Shown one piece after another: positions 46,436 through 52,349 of a stretch of DNA of 64,000 nt (the first letter of the stretch is position 1; every line of letters starts with the position of its first letter). The DNA lies in contig CAVXKA010000002.1 in NCBI GenBank assembly GCA_963762255.1, positions 544,001 through 608,000 on the forward strand. The letters run 5' to 3'. The position numbers and the translations under genes were made by a program. Under the pieces are notes generated by a model. It made no database searches, was not told the DNA's origin, and saw nothing but the letters and a program-made list of their open reading frames with translations. The stretch comes from Candidatus Eiseniibacteriota bacterium (lineage in GTDB: Bacteria > Eisenbacteria > RBG-16-71-46 > JABDJR01).

Positions 46436-47740
46436 TCACCAGGCGGATGGATGCAGACCGGCCGGGGCGGTCACACTCGCCGCGGCGCTCCACCCCGCCA
46501 CGTACCCGCTGGACCAGGCCCACTGAAAGTTGTAGCCGCCGATCCGCCCGTCCACGTCGAGGATCTCGCCGCAAAGGTGGAGGCCGGGGCAGATCCTGGA
46601 TTCCATCGTCTCCAGGCGGATCTCACCGAGGGGAACACCGCCCGCCGTCACCTCGGCGTAGCGGAACCCGCGGCTCCCTGTTATCGGCAGTCGAAGCTCC
46701 GACACCGCGCGGACGAAGGCCACGCGAGTCTCGCGGGTGAGCGTGGCGCCGGTCTCGCCCCCGGAGAGGCCCGCCTCTGCGCCAAGCGCTCTGGCCAGGC
46801 GCTCGGGGAGGCGCCGGCTCAAGGCCGCCACCGGCGACCGGCCTTCGAGGGATCGCAGCCACCGCTCCAGAGTCTCGCGCGTCTCTCCGGGGAGCCAGTT
46901 GACGACGAGATGCGCCTCGGGGTCCTCCGCGACCGCGTCCAGGTAGTAGCGGCTGATGTCGAGAACACCGGGGCCGGAGAGACCGAAATGCGTGCACAGG
47001 ATCGAGTCGGTGAAGCCGACGAGCCGCTTCCCGCCCGACGCGCGCAGCTCGATCGCGGCGGGGACACTCACCCCGCTCAGCCCGCAGAGGAAGTGACCCG
47101 AGGGCAGTGTGAGAGGAACAAGCGCGGGCAGCAGTCGCGGCGTGAGCGTATGCCCTAGCGATCGGGCGATCGCGAACCCGGCTCCGTCCGAACCGGATCG
47201 GGGGAGACTCTTGCCGCCGGTGGCGAGGACGACTCGCCGGGCGCGCAACTCCCCTTCGCTCCCGGCGAGGGCGAACCCGTCTTCTTCCCGGCGAATCGAC
47301 TCCACTCGCCATGGATGCCGCAGTTCGGCGCCAGCGTCGTCCGACGCGCGCAAGAGTGCGTCGAGCACGGTACGCGCGCGGTCATCGACCGGGAAGAGTT
47401 TGCCCCCCTCTTCACGCTTCAGCGTCACGCCCAGCTCTTGGAAGAAGGCCACCGTGCGGGGCACGTCAAAGCGTAAGAGGACTTTGCGGATGGCGTTTCG
47501 CGAGGAGCCGGCGAAGGCGAGTGGATCCACGACATCGTGGGTCACGTTGCAGCGCCCGCCGCCGGAGACGAGGATCTTCGCGCCGATCTTCCCGGCACCA
47601 TCAAGGAGGAGAACCCGCGTGTCGGATCCCGCCAGTGCGCGTCCCCCGCGCGCCTCAGCCGCGCGACGCCCGGCCCAGATCGCAGCCATGAGCCCGGCCG
47701 CGCCGGCGCCCACCACCACGGTTTCTGCTTGGACGTTCAT
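46436..47740 (-). CDS. HI0933/BaiN family flavoprotein
   Basis: GAGAAG, KILVSGGGRCNVT, THFGLSGP, VTAGGV, GGYNFQWA. Confidence 0.92.
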   Translation of the reverse strand: MNVQAETVVVGAGAAGLMAAIWAGRRAAEARGGRALAGSDTRVLLLDGAGKIGAKILVSGGGRCNVTHDVVDPLAFAGSSRNAIRKVLLRFDVPRTVAFFQELGVTLKREEGGKLFPVDDRARTVLDALLRASDDAGAELRHPWRVESIRREEDGFALAGSEGELRARRVVLATGGKSLPRSGSDGAGFAIARSLGHTLTPRLLPALVPLTLPSGHFLCGLSGVSVPAAIELRASGGKRLVGFTDSILCTHFGLSGPGVLDISRYYLDAVAEDPEAHLVVNWLPGETRETLERWLRSLEGRSPVAALSRRLPERLARALGAEAGLSGGETGATLTRETRVAFVRAVSELRLPITGSRGFRYAEVTAGGVPLGEIRLETMESRICPGLHLCGEILDVDGRIGGYNFQWAWSSGYVAGWSAAASVTAPAGLHPSAW

Positions 47741-47829
47741 GCATCAACTCCCGGGGGAGAGATCCTTCGATGCGACAGGGATGGTATCATCGCGCGTCGA
47801 GTCGGGACGCTCTCCAGTGGAGGAAGACC

Positions 47830-48645
47830 GTGATCGAGCCGAAGTCGGAGACCCTCGAGCAGACCCTGGCCCGTGACGACGTTCACGAGCAATGGGACCA
47901 GGATTACCGATCCCCCGAGAGCCTGGAGTATCTCGATCGAGTGCTGGATCGTCTGATCCCGATCCTGACCGCCAAACCAGGCGCGGTCATCCTGGACGCG
48001 GGCTGCGGTACGGCAGTGAACGCCATCCAGCTTGCCCGGAGAGGATTCCGCGTGGAGGGCGTGGACTTCTCGGATGCCGTCCTGCGGACGGCTCGAACGA
48101 ACGTCGAGAGTGCCGGGATGTCGGACATGATCCATCTCCGGCAGGGGAATCTCCTTTCCCTTTCCTTCCCGGACGAGTCCTTCGACACCGTCGTGTGCTG
48201 GGGCGTCCTGATGCACATCGCGGAGATCGAACAGGCGCTCTCCGAGCTCGCGCGCGTCCTCAAACCGGGGGGCCGGCTGGTAGTGGGCGAGATCAACATG
48301 CACTCCCTGCAGAGGATCAGCTTCGTGACCCTCGCGCGGCTCCTTGGACGGAGCAGGACCCCGGAGACCAGAACCCCTGCCGGGATGGAGTGCTGGTTTG
48401 AGACGTCGGCGGGAACACTGCTGAGACGGCACACGGATATCCGTTGGCTGACGCGGGCGATGGAGGACAGAGGGCTGACGCTGGTCAAGCGGCTCCCGGG
48501 TCAATTCACGGAGCTCTACCTGAAGACGCGGTCCCGACGCACCAAGGTCTGCATCCAGCGATTCAACATCTTCTGGGTCAGGTTTATCCGCGAACCTCGA
48601 TTGGCCTTCGGGAATGTCCTGGTCTTTCAGAAGACCCGGATCTAA
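47830..48645 (+). CDS. Class I SAM-dependent methyltransferase
   Basis: ILDAGCGT, GVDFS, FD.V.C..VLMH, RVLKPGG. Confidence 0.88.
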   Translation: MIEPKSETLEQTLARDDVHEQWDQDYRSPESLEYLDRVLDRLIPILTAKPGAVILDAGCGTAVNAIQLARRGFRVEGVDFSDAVLRTARTNVESAGMSDMIHLRQGNLLSLSFPDESFDTVVCWGVLMHIAEIEQALSELARVLKPGGRLVVGEINMHSLQRISFVTLARLLGRSRTPETRTPAGMECWFETSAGTLLRRHTDIRWLTRAMEDRGLTLVKRLPGQFTELYLKTRSRRTKVCIQRFNIFWVRFIREPRLAFGNVLVFQKTRI

Positions 48646-48654
48646 TAAGAAATA

Positions 48655-48732
48655 TGGTGTCCCCAACGGGATTCGAACCCGTGTCGCCAGCGTGAAAGGC
48701 TGGTGTCCTAGGCCAGACTAGACGATGGGGAC
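48655..48732 (-). tRNA. tRNA-Glu (UUC)
   Basis: GTCCCCA/TGGGGAC acceptor stem, anticodon arm CCAGC-CTTTCAC-GCTGG, GGTTCGAATCC T-arm, encoded CCA. Confidence 0.97.
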
Positions 48733-48776
48733 GAGAATGAGGCAGAGCGTGTCGGGCCGGCCAAAACCGGGCAAGA

Positions 48777-48805
48777 AAGTTATCAGCGCACCCAACCTGG
48801 GTCAA
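48777..48805 (-). promoter_or_regulatory. Sigma-70 promoter for tRNA-Glu
   Basis: TTGACC-17 nt-TAACTT. Confidence 0.6.
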
Positions 48806-48813
48806 CTGAAGGC

Positions 48814-48843
48814 AAAAAAAAGGCCGGGGGGTGATCCCCGGCC
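48814..48843 (-). terminator. Rho-independent terminator ending the putative ncRNA
   Basis: GGCCGGGG-ATCACC-CCCCGGCC followed by T8. Confidence 0.85.
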
Positions 48844-49016
48844 CCGCTCCAGACTGGAACCGGGCGTAGGCACCCGGCTGGAGGGCAACCAGTCCGAAGA
48901 CTGAATCGCGCGCTATCGCACGACCTCTTGGCAGAGTAGCTTGGGGGTCTCAAGAGGGATGAGCAAGGACCGCGATGCATCGCGATCAGCTTCGCAGAGA
49001 CCTATCCAAGTTACTC
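48814..49016 (-). ncRNA. Putative structured small RNA (~200 nt), family not recognised
   Basis: Own promoter and terminator; predicted +1 coincides with the first base of the closing helix; multiple stable hairpins; no RBS-led ORF. Confidence 0.7.
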
Positions 49017-49022
49017 GACGTG

Positions 49023-49050
49023 ATTATAGCAGCCCCCCGCTTTGAGTCAC
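49023..49050 (-). promoter_or_regulatory. Extended -10 sigma-70 promoter for the putative ncRNA
   Basis: GTGACT-16 nt-TATAAT with TGn immediately before the consensus TATAAT. Confidence 0.7.
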
Positions 49051-49062
49051 CAAAAAAGACCG

Positions 49063-49677
49063 TTAACGATACCTTCGTATCAGACCAACAACTATCCCGA
49101 CGATCTTCAACTCTTTTGGGTTCCGTATCACGATGGGATCCATCTTCGCGTTCTCTGGCAAGAGCCGAAGCTTATCCCCTTTCCTTTCAAAGCGTTTCAC
49201 GGTGGCCTCATCCTCGATCATGGCCACCACGATATCCCCGCTCGCCGCCGTCTTCTGAGGCCGGACGAGGATCTGATCCCCCGGGCAGATATGGGCCTCG
49301 ATCATGCTTTCGCCCTGAACCTCCAACAGGAAATTGCCCTCTCCCTTGAGCAGACCCTGATCCAGAGTGATTCGGTCGGAGATGTTCTCCTGCGCCAGGA
49401 TGGGCTCACCTGCGGCAATCCGGCCGACCACCGGGACACTCTGCCCGGCCGCCGTCGGCCGCGGTCCCATGATCTCGATTCCGCGTGACCGGTCACGTGT
49501 CCTGGCGATGTAGCCCTTCCGCTCCAGCGCCAGGAGATGGTCGGACGCCGCCCGCGTACTCTTCATGCCGAACTCGGAGCAGATTTCCCGCAAGGTGGGC
49601 GGGTACCCGTGATTCTCCAGATGGCTCGCGAGGTACTCGTAGATCTCCTGCTGACGCGGAGTCAGGTTATGCATCAC
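49063..49677 (-). CDS. lexA: SOS repressor LexA
   Basis: LTPRQQEI..GYPPTLREI wHTH, IAAG cleavage site, GESM (Ser), TVKR (Lys). Confidence 0.97.
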   Translation of the reverse strand: MMHNLTPRQQEIYEYLASHLENHGYPPTLREICSEFGMKSTRAASDHLLALERKGYIARTRDRSRGIEIMGPRPTAAGQSVPVVGRIAAGEPILAQENISDRITLDQGLLKGEGNFLLEVQGESMIEAHICPGDQILVRPQKTAASGDIVVAMIEDEATVKRFERKGDKLRLLPENAKMDPIVIRNPKELKIVGIVVGLIRRYR

Positions 49678-49726
49678 GTCCTCCCAAGACGGGCGTTGAT
49701 CCAGGTCGGCCCCGCCTGAAGCCGAT

Positions 49727-50161
49727 TCACGAACATACCGGAACGGCGACCTGGCAGGGCTGGAAAAGGTCCCCCTGACCGTTTCGCTCGCCCTCCCCGC
49801 GACGGCGGGCAGGCTCCGCGACCGGACTGGGCTCCGGCGTCGTCGCCGATGCGGGCGCCGGTTCCGCCGCCCGATCCCACCCTATCTGAGAGGCGAGGCC
49901 GAGCAGGAAGCTCTTGCGCCAGAGATCCCCGGCTTCGGAAGCCACTGCCGGACCGACGGCGAGCGCGCGGCGGAGCAGGGGGAGCCTCCCATCTTCCAAG
50001 AACGATGTCCATTCCTCGGCGAACCGCCGAAGCTGCTCGACACGTTCCCGCCGGGAAACACCCCGTGAACTCTTCTGGAGCCGCTCCACCAGGATGCGGC
50101 GCAGCGCGTAGGTATCTTCCTGAGTGATCTCATCCGGAATCTGATTCGAGAACGCGATCAT
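49727..50161 (-). CDS. Hypothetical protein co-oriented upstream of lexA
   Basis: 144-aa ORF: helical N-terminus, Pro/Ala linker, C-terminal QGDLF. Confidence 0.55.
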   Translation of the reverse strand: MIAFSNQIPDEITQEDTYALRRILVERLQKSSRGVSRRERVEQLRRFAEEWTSFLEDGRLPLLRRALAVGPAVASEAGDLWRKSFLLGLASQIGWDRAAEPAPASATTPEPSPVAEPARRRGEGERNGQGDLFQPCQVAVPVCS

Positions 50162-50384
50162 GACGCCTGCCCTTCCTGCCACTTCGAGCGAACCATCCGC
50201 CCTTCCTGACGATCTGCCCGGTCGGGCGGCTTCGTCCGCCTCACCCGACTTCCCCCATCTGTTGAGAGCGAACGTCCCGACCGGGCTCAATCCGTTTTCT
50301 ACGCATATGTATACTACTCGTATGTTCCGGCAGCAAGGACAAAAGGGGGCGGGGCGAAAAAATTTGTAACGTAATGAAACAGAA

Positions 50385-52349
50385 TTAGTTATCGACGTCC
50401 AAGAACGCTTCGAGGCGCATCGCGAGGCGTTCCCACTCGCTGATGGCGGCTGAGGCTTCTTGCTGGGCCACCTCCAGGCGGGATTGAAGGTCGGCCAACC
50501 GAGCCGCTTCGGTGGCCAGACGGGGATCCTCCATCTCCATGAGGATCTCCTGCCGGAGCGCGTCGAGCCGCCCGACTTCGGCTTCCGCCTCGTGCAGCCG
50601 GCGGCGGAGCTTCTCTTCGTCGCGCTTGCGCTGTCGTTGCTCCTCGCGACTGAACCGCCGCTCTTCCTTCTCGGCACTCCGACTTTCAACCAGAACAGGA
50701 TCATCGCCTTCGCGTGTGGCCGCAGAACTTGCGTCGGCGGGAACCGCGCGCCGTTCCGCCGCGTAGCGGGAATAGCCCCCCTCCCACAAGCGACACCCAT
50801 CCGCGTGCAGTTCGAGGACGTGATCCATGACCCGGTCCAGGAAATACCGGTCATGGCTCACCACGAGGACAGTCCCCGCATAGGCCTGGAGCGCGGCCTC
50901 GAAGACCTCCCGCGACTCGATGTCCAGGTGGTTGGTGGGCTCGTCGAGAAGGAGGAAGTTCGCCCCCTGGCGCACGAGCTTGGCCAGTGCCACTCGGCTC
51001 TTCTCGCCGCCGGAAAGGAAGTTGAGCGGCTTGAACACGTCGTCGCCGCGAAAGAGGAACGACCCCAGGAAGCTGCGGATCTCGTTCTCGGTGGCCTGCG
51101 GGGTGATGGACCAGACCTCGTCCAGCACGGACTGGCTGCCGCGGATGTGGGTCTGCTCCTGTTCGTAGTAGCCCATCTCGACGCCGGGGCCGATCCTGAG
51201 CTTGCCTTCGTCCTGGCTTTCCTCCCCGATGATGAGCCGAACCAGCGTCGTCTTGCCCACCCCATTGGGGCCGATCAACCCGACCTTCTGGCCGCGCATG
51301 AGCAGGAACTCCACGCCGCCGAAGACTCGGAGATCGCCGTAGCGCTTGCCGAGCCGCTTGGCTTCGACCACGTTCCGCGCGCAGCGCGTGGGCTCGGGCA
51401 GGCGCATGTGGATGCTCGAAGCGGGCCACTCCGGGGCCTCCACCCGCTCCAGCTTCTCGAGCATCCGGCGGCGTGCCTGGGCCTGCTTGGTGTTCCCGCC
51501 GGCGAGGTTGCGGCGGACGAAATCCTCCTGCCGCTTGATCTCGGTCTGTTGGAGTTCGTAGCGCCGGGCCTGCTCCTCGAGGCGACGTTCGCGTTCGACG
51601 AGGAACGCGTCGTAGTTGCCTTGAAATCGATGCAGCTTGCGGTATCGCAGCTCCACGACTTCGCGCGCGAGGCGATTGAGGAACATCCGGTCGTGGCTCA
51701 CGATCACGTACGCACCCTGGTACTCCTGCAGGAAGCGCTCGAGCCATTCGATGGCGTCGAGATCGAGATGGTTGGTGGGCTCGTCGAGAAGGAGCAGGTC
51801 GGGGTCGCGCAGCAGCACCCGCGCCAGCATCGCCCGGCTCTTCTGCCCGCCGCTGAACTCGACGAGCGGCCGGTCCAAGTCCTCTTCGCGGAAGTGGAGG
51901 CCCTCGAGGACCTCCTTGATGCGCGCGTCGAACGAGTACCCGCCCTCACGTTCCAGCCGCTCCTGCAAGCGTGCGTAGTGTTCGAGGAGGGACTCGGCCT
52001 CGGCGTCGCCCTCCTGCAAAGCACTCAGGGCGCGCGTCGCCTCCGCGTGTTCCTGTTGGAGATCCTGGAGGTGCTGAAGCCCACGCGCCGCCTCCTCGCG
52101 CAGCGTGCGCCGGTCGTCGACCCGGACTTCCTGCTCCATCGATGCGATGACCGCTCCTCGGCGCCGCCACACCGAGCCGCGGTCCGGATCCATCTCTCCG
52201 GCGAGGATACGGAAGAGCGTGGTCTTACCCGCGCCGTTGCGGCCGACCAGCGAGATGCGGTCGCCTTCGCGGATCTGCCAGTGGATGTCTTCGAGCAACT
52301 CCTGGGAGCCGAAGCTCTTGGAGACCTCGCTGAGCTGGGCGATCAGCAC
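50385..52349 (-). CDS. ABC-F family ATP-binding protein
   Basis: Two ABC cassettes (GRNGAGKT, GPNGVGKT, LDEPTNHLD twice), C-terminal coiled coil, no TM. Confidence 0.93.
   Translation of the reverse strand: MLIAQLSEVSKSFGSQELLEDIHWQIREGDRISLVGRNGAGKTTLFRILAGEMDPDRGSVWRRRGAVIASMEQEVRVDDRRTLREEAARGLQHLQDLQQEHAEATRALSALQEGDAEAESLLEHYARLQERLEREGGYSFDARIKEVLEGLHFREEDLDRPLVEFSGGQKSRAMLARVLLRDPDLLLLDEPTNHLDLDAIEWLERFLQEYQGAYVIVSHDRMFLNRLAREVVELRYRKLHRFQGNYDAFLVERERRLEEQARRYELQQTEIKRQEDFVRRNLAGGNTKQAQARRRMLEKLERVEAPEWPASSIHMRLPEPTRCARNVVEAKRLGKRYGDLRVFGGVEFLLMRGQKVGLIGPNGVGKTTLVRLIIGEESQDEGKLRIGPGVEMGYYEQEQTHIRGSQSVLDEVWSITPQATENEIRSFLGSFLFRGDDVFKPLNFLSGGEKSRVALAKLVRQGANFLLLDEPTNHLDIESREVFEAALQAYAGTVLVVSHDRYFLDRVMDHVLELHADGCRLWEGGYSRYAAERRAVPADASSAATREGDDPVLVESRSAEKEERRFSREEQRQRKRDEEKLRRRLHEAEAEVGRLDALRQEILMEMEDPRLATEAARLADLQSRLEVAQQEASAAISEWERLAMRLEAFLDVDN

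Follow-up and report, generated by a model that had tools for sequence, protein, structure and literature searches.

A conserved structured RNA between lexA and tRNA-Glu in Candidatus Eisenbacteria and its predicted pairing with an OmpA-family leader

The RNA gene between lexA and tRNA-Glu

The intergenic region between lexA and a tRNA-Glu(UUC) gene was analysed in a 64,000-nucleotide stretch of a Candidatus Eiseniibacteriota genome (contig CAVXKA010000002.1, positions 544,001 to 608,000; referred to as the window). The element described here is an RNA of about 203 nucleotides (nt) that is encoded on the minus strand of this region. A preliminary description of the window, made from its letters, had proposed a self-contained structured RNA gene with its own promoter and terminator. 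The promoter and terminator scans, the z score of the fold, the conservation and the covariation all agreed with this proposal, and every element listed in the description was recovered on the minus strand at its position. We regard it as highly probable that the RNA gene is genuine. The features of the locus are given in window coordinates in Table 1.

Table 1. Features of the lexA to tRNA-Glu region, with window positions and supporting evidence.
Feature	Position	Strand	Evidence or remark
-35-like hexamer GTGACT	49045..49050	-	Promoter scan, 10/12 matches for GTGACT-16-TATAAT
Extended -10 TGcTATAAT	49023..49030	-	Promoter scan; TGnTATAAT in 8/8 homologues
Small RNA (sRNA), ~203 nt	48814..49016	-	Fold z score, homologue scores, covariation
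5' domain	48934..49016	-	P1 49016-49006/48944-48934; P2 49002-48997/48951-48946; P3 hairpin 48987-48968
Motif 1, proposed seed UCCUUGCUCAUCCCU	48955..48969	-	Mostly in internal loop 3' of P3
P4 hairpin UCGUGCG-AUAG-CGCGCGA	48904..48925	-	Helix 7: 97.9% of cells paired, 1 compensatory pair
3' domain	48846..48899	-	Long-range helix P5 48899-48889/48857-48847 encloses hairpin P6 48879-48858
Motif 2, 9-nt bulge UUGCCCUCC	48880..48888	-	Resembles anti-Shine-Dalgarno sequence
Intrinsic terminator	48814..48845	-	Terminator scan; 10-base-pair GC stem, loop AUCACC, U8
lexA, upstream neighbour	49063..49677	-	Pfam LexA_DNA_bind 7.5e-24, Peptidase_S24 2.6e-35
tRNA-Glu(UUC), downstream neighbour	48655..48732	-	cmscan; 81 nt past the RNA

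A consensus scan of 48500-49900 gave a single promoter-like site for the minus-strand interval 49050-48814, with a TG extension of its -10 element; 0.2 such sites were expected in shuffled sequences. The -35 region was retained as G[GA]TGAC in all eight homologues, with a spacing of 16 nt (19 nt in genome G006). The position of the extended -10 element placed the +1 site near 49016. The terminator was composed of GGGGCCGGGG-AUCACC-CCCCGGCC followed by U8, and its stem was unchanged in the seven of seven sequences that extend to it. On sequence evidence, the RNA has both the promoter of its own and the Rho-independent terminator that are expected of a trans-encoded sRNA.

The stop codon of lexA (49065-49063) lies 33 nt ahead of the -10 element, and the terminator scan detected no terminator-like site between this stop codon and the RNA. 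On the other side, the U8 terminator and a variable spacer of 81-455 nt that could not be aligned between genomes part the RNA from tRNA-Glu, which bears out the earlier view that the RNA is not simply a tRNA leader. A promoter belonging to tRNA-Glu itself had also been described. Its TTGACC -35 hexamer was present, but the scan called no promoter there because the -10 element is weak.

Coverage of the locus was examined in an index of public sequencing runs. The stretch or a part of it was found in 20 runs from 15 studies, and six of these runs were RNA libraries. Assembled contigs, which cannot show transcript ends, were compared from four RNA libraries of four studies, and the RNA was covered in three of the four. 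In library X17, a 157-nt contig (48838-48994, 2 differences) lay wholly inside the RNA, and the immediate flanks, including the 3' end of lexA, were uncovered. A 256-nt contig from X19 (48847-49102) reached 86 nt upstream of +1, and a 712-nt contig from X15 spanned tRNA-Glu, the RNA and the 3' end of lexA at 92% identity. Only the tRNA was covered in X16. This cover is compatible with transcription of the RNA and with read-through from lexA, and carried-over DNA may contribute to it.

Fold, invariant motifs and distribution

The minimum free energy of the segment 49020-48814 (207 nt) was -100.7 kcal/mol, and that of 200 dinucleotide shuffles was -75 kcal/mol on average (standard deviation 4.7), which corresponds to z = -5.49. 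None of the 200 shuffles folded as well as the RNA. The minimum free energy fold was composed of a long 5' helix around the GAUCGCGA/UCGCGGUC hairpin, the UCGUGCG/CGCGCGA hairpin and the 3' domain.

Covariation among homologues had been named in the preliminary description as a check on the gene. RNAalifold gave 61 pairs for six sequences, and 10 of them carried compensatory changes. In an alignment of eight sequences to the covariance model, 94.8% of cells were paired and 12 of the 61 pairs showed double-sided changes, a count to be read with the caveat that this alignment was fitted to the structure of the model itself. None of 500 column shuffles attained any of the five measures, and sliding the structure by 1-3 columns left at most five such pairs. 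The changes were distributed over several helices. Double-sided changes occurred in seven of the eight pairs of P3. Helix P5 (helix 8, CUUCRGRCUGG/CCAGYYUGRRG) had 98.9% of its cells paired, with two double-sided and four one-sided pair changes, and helix 9 had 98.6% paired. P2, which was misaligned by the alignment tools, was judged from single-sequence folds; it formed in all eight of them from unlike sequences (GGUCUC/GAGACC, GUCCC/GGGAC, AUCCACG/CGUGGAU and others).

The covariation, as a comparison of sequences, favours one fold that includes the long-range helix P5. Pseudoknotted or switchable architectures, which had also been suggested, were not borne out. The proposed CCUCUU/AAGAGG pseudoknot had 71% of its cells paired, showed no compensatory change and was matched by all 500 of 500 shuffles. 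The central pair of the CUCCAG/CUGGAG pairing was broken in five of seven sequences, and neither this pairing nor the local CAGUC/GACUG hairpin showed a compensatory change. The CCUCUU/AAGAGG and CUCCAG/CUGGAG complementarities do exist in this sequence, but they are not conserved.

Two C-rich motifs stood out, each in an asymmetric internal loop of a long stem. The core of motif 1, UUGCUCAUCCC (48966-48956), was invariant in all eight sequences, and its UCCC(U) was predicted by partition-function folds to be unpaired with a probability of at least 0.9 in five of seven full-length homologues. The block that contains motif 2, CUGGUUGCCCUCCAG (48892-48878), was likewise invariant in all eight sequences, and the bulge itself was unpaired with a probability of about 1.0 in all seven full-length homologues in the same folds. 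By these predictions, the RNA displays the conserved and accessible seed that is typical of trans-encoded sRNAs.

The contigs that bear homologues belong to metagenome-assembled genomes of Candidatus Eisenbacteria/Eiseniibacteriota. The RNA was found in seven of the eight genomes of one family of this phylum, termed f1, which includes the present organism (G000), and on one further metagenome contig. A DNA search of 61 related genomes recovered the RNA in six of the seven other f1 genomes; outside f1, it returned only a 30-nt chance match. The covariance model R1, built from six sequences, scored 164-232 bits in G000 and five other f1 genomes and 49.9 bits for the copy in G002, which is cut by a contig end. 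The copy on the metagenome contig (L042) scored 213.8 bits and also had lexA upstream. The RNA was missing from G001, an f1 genome of 75% completeness that lacks lexA too. Among 151 genomes sampled from the phylum, the 144 outside f1 gave only seven weak matches of 22-26 bits. Six of them were a similar terminator hairpin or a partial match with neither lexA nor tRNA-Glu nearby, and the seventh (G136) comprised terminator positions only. Furthermore, nine of 15 exact 21-mer matches in a collection of genome contigs (Streptomyces, Methanomicrobiales and others) scored at most 16 bits with the model and were discarded as chance.

The neighbourhood was conserved together with the RNA. lexA lay upstream in all seven f1 loci, and the order lexA, RNA, tRNA-Glu was kept in the six of six full-length f1 loci; the RNA could be aligned between genomes, but the spacer downstream of it could not. 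In families f2 (two genomes) and f3 (one genome), tRNA-Glu comes immediately after lexA and no such RNA intervenes. We conclude that the RNA was inserted specifically in f1 and that the neighbourhood predates the sRNA. Descent of the RNA from the tRNA-Glu leader of f2 was considered and rejected, with local alignment scores of 16-20 that lay within those of shuffles (maximum 24-27). In the f2 and f3 loci (L139 in G008, L140 in G009 and L141 in G010), tRNA-Glu(UUC) has a clear promoter, TTGACC-17-TATAAT/TATACT.

The RNA was compared with the 4227 models of Rfam 15. At gathering thresholds, tRNA alone passed in a cmscan of the whole window, and the novelty claimed for the RNA stood against this library. 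A permissive scan of 48700-49150 returned eight matches with E up to 10, all below threshold. Seven were on the same strand and confined to the 3' end of the RNA (within 48807-48905), where an unpaired CCCUCC precedes the terminator. They included SorY (27 bits against a gathering threshold of 111), SorX (20.5 against 46.6), mmgR (suhB) (21.7 against 41), anti-hemB (19.1 against 49.5) and Betaproteobacteria toxic sRNA (18.5 against 50). These C-rich CCUCC RNAs of alpha- and beta-proteobacteria align to the 3' 70-90 nt, and the likeness consists of a generic C-rich stretch and a terminator, whereas the 5' domain is unmatched. The eighth match, ylbH, lay on the opposite strand (12.1 against 50 bits). 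For the 5' domain, no Rfam family appeared even at E = 10, and no riboswitch family was matched at E up to 10.

In line with the preliminary description, the RNA is also not 6S RNA, since RF00013 had no match at the locus and two matches elsewhere in the genome. The RNA resembles 6S RNA in being about 200 nt long and highly structured, with its own promoter and terminator; 6S RNA is a rod with a central bubble, whereas the RNA here forms two multi-helix domains. The two RF00013 matches above the cut-off are at C2:243811-243989 (-) and C1:103435-103588 (+) of G000 (L010 and L011), with 87.3 and 49.6 bits, and this organism may have two 6S RNAs. In the literature, the matches listed mentioned Eisenbacteria and small RNA together, in the portions of text available, only in work on CsrA. 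The RNA is a previously undescribed family of a known functional kind.

Complementarity to an OmpA-family leader

The main functional clue, which is absent from the preliminary description, is the match between motif 1 and the leader of an OmpA-family gene. In a whole-genome scan, motif 1 with its flanks had a 15-nt perfect complement at C1:276529-276543 of G000. This site lies 11-25 nt upstream of the start codon and overlaps the Shine-Dalgarno sequence AAGGAGG. The gene encodes a protein of 539 amino acids with a signal peptide, a barrel region, TSP_3 repeats and an OmpA domain (9.9e-22).

Start regions were compared for a crude set of 3450 predicted genes and 3450 interior control windows. 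The 15 nt were the longest complement to motif 1 among all start regions; the next best was 12 nt, and the maximum in the interior controls was 9 nt. Complements of at least 10 nt occurred in 11 of 3450 start regions and in none of the 3450 controls. Six of the 11 belonged to envelope proteins, two of them paralogues, which is suggestive only.

The site was conserved in the family that carries the RNA. The sequence AGGGAUGAG(C/U)AAGG (DNA AGGGATGAG(C/T)AAGG) was present in all six f1 orthologues, and the leader around it varied. The sole change in the site, C to U in G003, still pairs as G.U. By contrast, the site was found in none of eight outgroup orthologues (E 1e-64 to 1e-92) from six other families without the RNA. 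Their leaders contained CAAGGAGGUA-N5-AUG only (DNA CAAGGAGGTA-N5-ATG) and no upstream half of the site; those of G012 and G015 had just a GGAG-type Shine-Dalgarno sequence. The complementarity to a start region that is expected of the sRNA class was thus conserved as a predicted duplex of 12-15 base pairs in six of six f1 orthologues and zero of eight outgroup orthologues.

The specificity of the site was evaluated with the 16-nt pattern GGGATGAGYAAGGAGG. It occurred once per genome in six of the seven f1 genomes of the phylum sample, always at the OmpA-family gene. Among the other genomes, it was found in one of 144, at an unrelated small gene, which equals the rate of the reversed-pattern control. 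Moreover, the RNA:mRNA duplexes predicted within each genome had energies of -28 to -34 kcal/mol, with shuffle means of -19 to -24 kcal/mol. The G000 RNA gave -17 to -26 kcal/mol against five outgroup leaders (G008, G009, G022, G028 and G034).

Other matches of motif 1 were followed and rejected. The start of tuf, GAAGGAUGAGCAAG, is complementary over 11 nt in G000, in G006 and in one of the copies of G004. In G003 this start reads AUGGCGAAG, with motif 1 of its sRNA unchanged, and EF-Tu was not retained as a conserved target. Both EF-Tu genes of G000 (C2:1298064 and C2:1281768; L043, L045, L047 and L049) begin with GAAGGAUGAGCAAG. The start regions of a BamE-like and a PEGA/PD40 lipoprotein gene match over 12 and 11 nt in G000, and their relatives keep the Shine-Dalgarno sequence only (4-9 nt). 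A broken paralogue of the PEGA/PD40 lipoprotein gene (C1:59808-61217) was noticed at C2:1419467-1420682 of G000 (L072); it has several in-frame stops and shares the leader and signal peptide of the intact gene.

Motif 2 was searched in the same way. Complements of at least 10 nt were found in six start regions and two control windows, which is no enrichment, and the pattern GGAGGGCAA-N(1-9)-RTG was no commoner than its reversed control in eight genomes. A match at a VOC-family gene was not orthologous between genomes, two further matches lay inside coding regions, and in the OmpA-family gene a 7-nt match at +97 falls in coding sequence. The motif 2 bulge may be a second seed.

Proposed function and alternatives

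The reading that we prefer, with a probability of roughly 0.6, is that the RNA is a trans-acting base-pairing sRNA that represses translation of the OmpA-family protein. What was observed, and what this reading builds on, is the existence of the gene, its conservation and fold, the complementarity to the leader, and the joint occurrence of RNA and site. According to this model, the RNA would be transcribed from its own extended -10, sigma-70-type promoter just past the lexA stop codon and would end at the intrinsic terminator, where lexA transcripts probably end as well. Each of the two stem domains would expose one of the invariant C-rich motifs in single-stranded form. Within the 5' domain, the loop CAUCCCU with its continuation into UCCUUGCU would nucleate a duplex of 12-15 base pairs with the OmpA-family leader. 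This duplex would span positions -25 to -11, counted from the start codon, and take in the beginning of the Shine-Dalgarno AAGGAGG. It would block binding of the 30S subunit, so that less OmpA-family protein is made. Pairing in the cell, repression as its outcome and action without Hfq are what we infer from the observations.

Several points weigh against this proposal. The RNA and the site co-occur within one clade and therefore represent a single evolutionary event instead of six separate observations. An AUG within the site is in frame with the gene in all six f1 orthologues, including one with a 3-nt insertion (G003), so that an N-terminal extension of the f1 protein (MSKEVK..) is possible and the conservation of the site might stem from this extension and not from pairing. 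On the other hand, second-position changes were found in the two codons before the second ATG, and the first ATG lacks a properly spaced Shine-Dalgarno sequence. In the outgroup, the conserved Shine-Dalgarno sequence and its spacing mark the second ATG as the start codon. Whichever ATG is used, the initiation region would be covered by the pairing. Furthermore, the site, which is presumed to be part of the OmpA-family mRNA, lies only about 40 nt away from the upstream hairpin. By RNAduplex, the gene comes only at about rank 8 of 3450; duplex energy taken alone has no discriminating power in this GC-rich genome. The three other start-region matches (two lipoprotein sites and tuf) failed, and no conserved target was found for motif 2, the most accessible and invariant motif. 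The contigs from X15 and X19 run into lexA, which could reflect read-through or DNA in the libraries. Finally, an Hfq gene, as an Hfq-dependent sRNA would need, was not found: PF17209 had no match in G000, which is 93.6% complete and in which ProQ was not searched for. CsrA had no match in this genome either.

The relation of the proposed sRNA to known regulators of OmpA was also considered. The sRNA MicA of enterobacteria is dependent on sigma-E. Models of both MicA and VrrA are contained in the Rfam 15 library, and neither was among the matches with E up to 10 on 48700-49150. In Vibrio cholerae, VrrA is reported to require sigma-E and to repress ompA translation by pairing with its 5' region, for which Hfq is not stringently required (PMC2628432). 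The RNA described here shares with both that it would be a trans-encoded sRNA of the 70-200 nt class with its own promoter and an intrinsic terminator, in which a conserved single-stranded stretch is directed, here by predicted pairing, against the translation start region of an OmpA-family mRNA. It differs from them in being unrelated in sequence and structure, with about 200 nt and two stem domains, in a promoter that looks like a sigma-70 extended -10 promoter and not a sigma-E promoter, and in its origin from another phylum and a genome in which no Hfq gene was found. By this analogy, the resemblance is functional only. If the reading is true, sRNA control of an OmpA-type protein would have been invented independently a third time, MicA and VrrA being the other two cases, and here in a genome without a detected Hfq gene.

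RNA regulation is almost unexplored in candidate phyla without any cultured member. In this case the sequence by itself provides a new family of RNA, a specific target that can be tested and a rough date of origin. Within one family the RNA occurs together with its target site, and the sister families have neither of the two, which makes a clean case for studying the birth of an sRNA-target pair. The predicted pairing can be tested in E. coli, and the organism itself need not be cultured.

The main rival to base pairing with the OmpA-family mRNA is that the RNA, as a whole or in part, serves to bind a protein; it would then, for example, sequester or scaffold a factor for C-rich loops or mimics of the 16S 3' tail, and the OmpA match would be incidental. 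We consider this rather unlikely. The two invariant motifs in similar asymmetric internal loops of long stems are typical of protein-binding sites, the whole 3' domain including its stems is almost invariant across genera, and the lack of a conserved mRNA target for motif 2 fits this explanation as well. Over 8 nt, the terminator loop GGAUCACC is identical to a part of the 16S 3' tail GGAUCACCUCC, but this match was noticed after the fact. Chance is an unlikely source of the 15-nt complement, given its presence in six of six f1 orthologues and its absence from eight of eight in the outgroup. Moreover, neither of the candidate proteins CsrA and Hfq was found in G000, and no candidate protein partner is encoded adjacent to the RNA.

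A wider proposal, in which the sRNA and its target are a pair of recent origin that links the SOS response with the outer membrane, is quite doubtful. The RNA would have arisen between lexA and tRNA-Glu at the base of f1, and the matching site would have arisen in the leader of the major OmpA-type protein. Derepression of lexA after DNA damage would then also deliver the RNA as the lexA 3' untranslated region (UTR) and lower porin synthesis, and the 9-nt bulge that resembles an anti-Shine-Dalgarno sequence would serve a second regulon, all without Hfq. No terminator was found between lexA and the RNA, and the RNA may therefore also form the 3' end of lexA transcripts, which makes a link to the SOS response possible. 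From the sequence, read-through of lexA into the RNA is plausible. In six aligned genomes, no clear palindrome corresponding to a LexA box was seen upstream of lexA.

It is improbable that the RNA is nothing else than a structured 3' UTR and terminator of the lexA mRNA, acting in cis on lexA stability or released by processing only. Such a role would suit the short distance between the lexA stop codon and the -10 element without a terminator-like site, the X15 and X19 contigs that bridge the lexA 3' end and the RNA, and the presence of lexA upstream in every locus. However, the near-consensus extended -10 element was found in all eight homologues at a fixed distance from the first helix, this element is lacking behind lexA of f2 and f3, where tRNA-Glu is the next gene, and the X17 contig lies wholly inside the RNA with the lexA 3' end uncovered. 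The 3' UTR and sRNA readings are mutually compatible. sRNAs of the 3' UTR type with an internal promoter are known (DapZ and MicL), and these likewise lie directly behind a coding gene, share a common terminator with it and have their own promoter by the end of the coding region. The promoter here differs in lying just past the stop codon and not inside the coding region, and co-transcription with lexA is plausible from the sequence.

It is very improbable that the RNA is a riboswitch-like or pseudoknotted switch, or that it acts as a leader in the control of tRNA-Glu transcription. The CCUCUUG-CAAGAGG and CUCCAG-CUGGAG pairings that a switch would use are possible in this genome, but neither the pseudoknot nor the alternative helices covaried, as noted above. 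The terminator was constitutive in every predicted fold, and both the unalignable tRNA spacer and the lack of any riboswitch match speak against such a role. A small protein from the ATG-initiated 65-codon open reading frame (ORF) listed at 48980-48783 on the RNA strand can practically be dismissed, since its ATG lies in the P3 loop and is missing from homologues (GTCAAGACG, GCTCAGACG and others), the alignment contains 1-3-nt indels, and the substitutions are compensatory in helices and not synonymous.

Some minor observations were made around the locus. A 375-amino-acid ORF without a Pfam match (window 49727-50854, minus strand) lies directly upstream of lexA with a 49-nt gap. A 309-amino-acid ORF, also without a Pfam match (window 47737-48666, minus strand), shares 12 nt with the 3' end of tRNA-Glu, which probably reflects a wrongly placed start or a spurious ORF. 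Hairpins that resemble the sRNA terminator (GGGGCCGGGGAUCACCCCCCGGCC) recur in other Eisenbacteria families (L036-L040), and G136 has such a hairpin twice, 1.4 kb apart, at C11:45273-45298 and 46673-46698 (L035 and L041).

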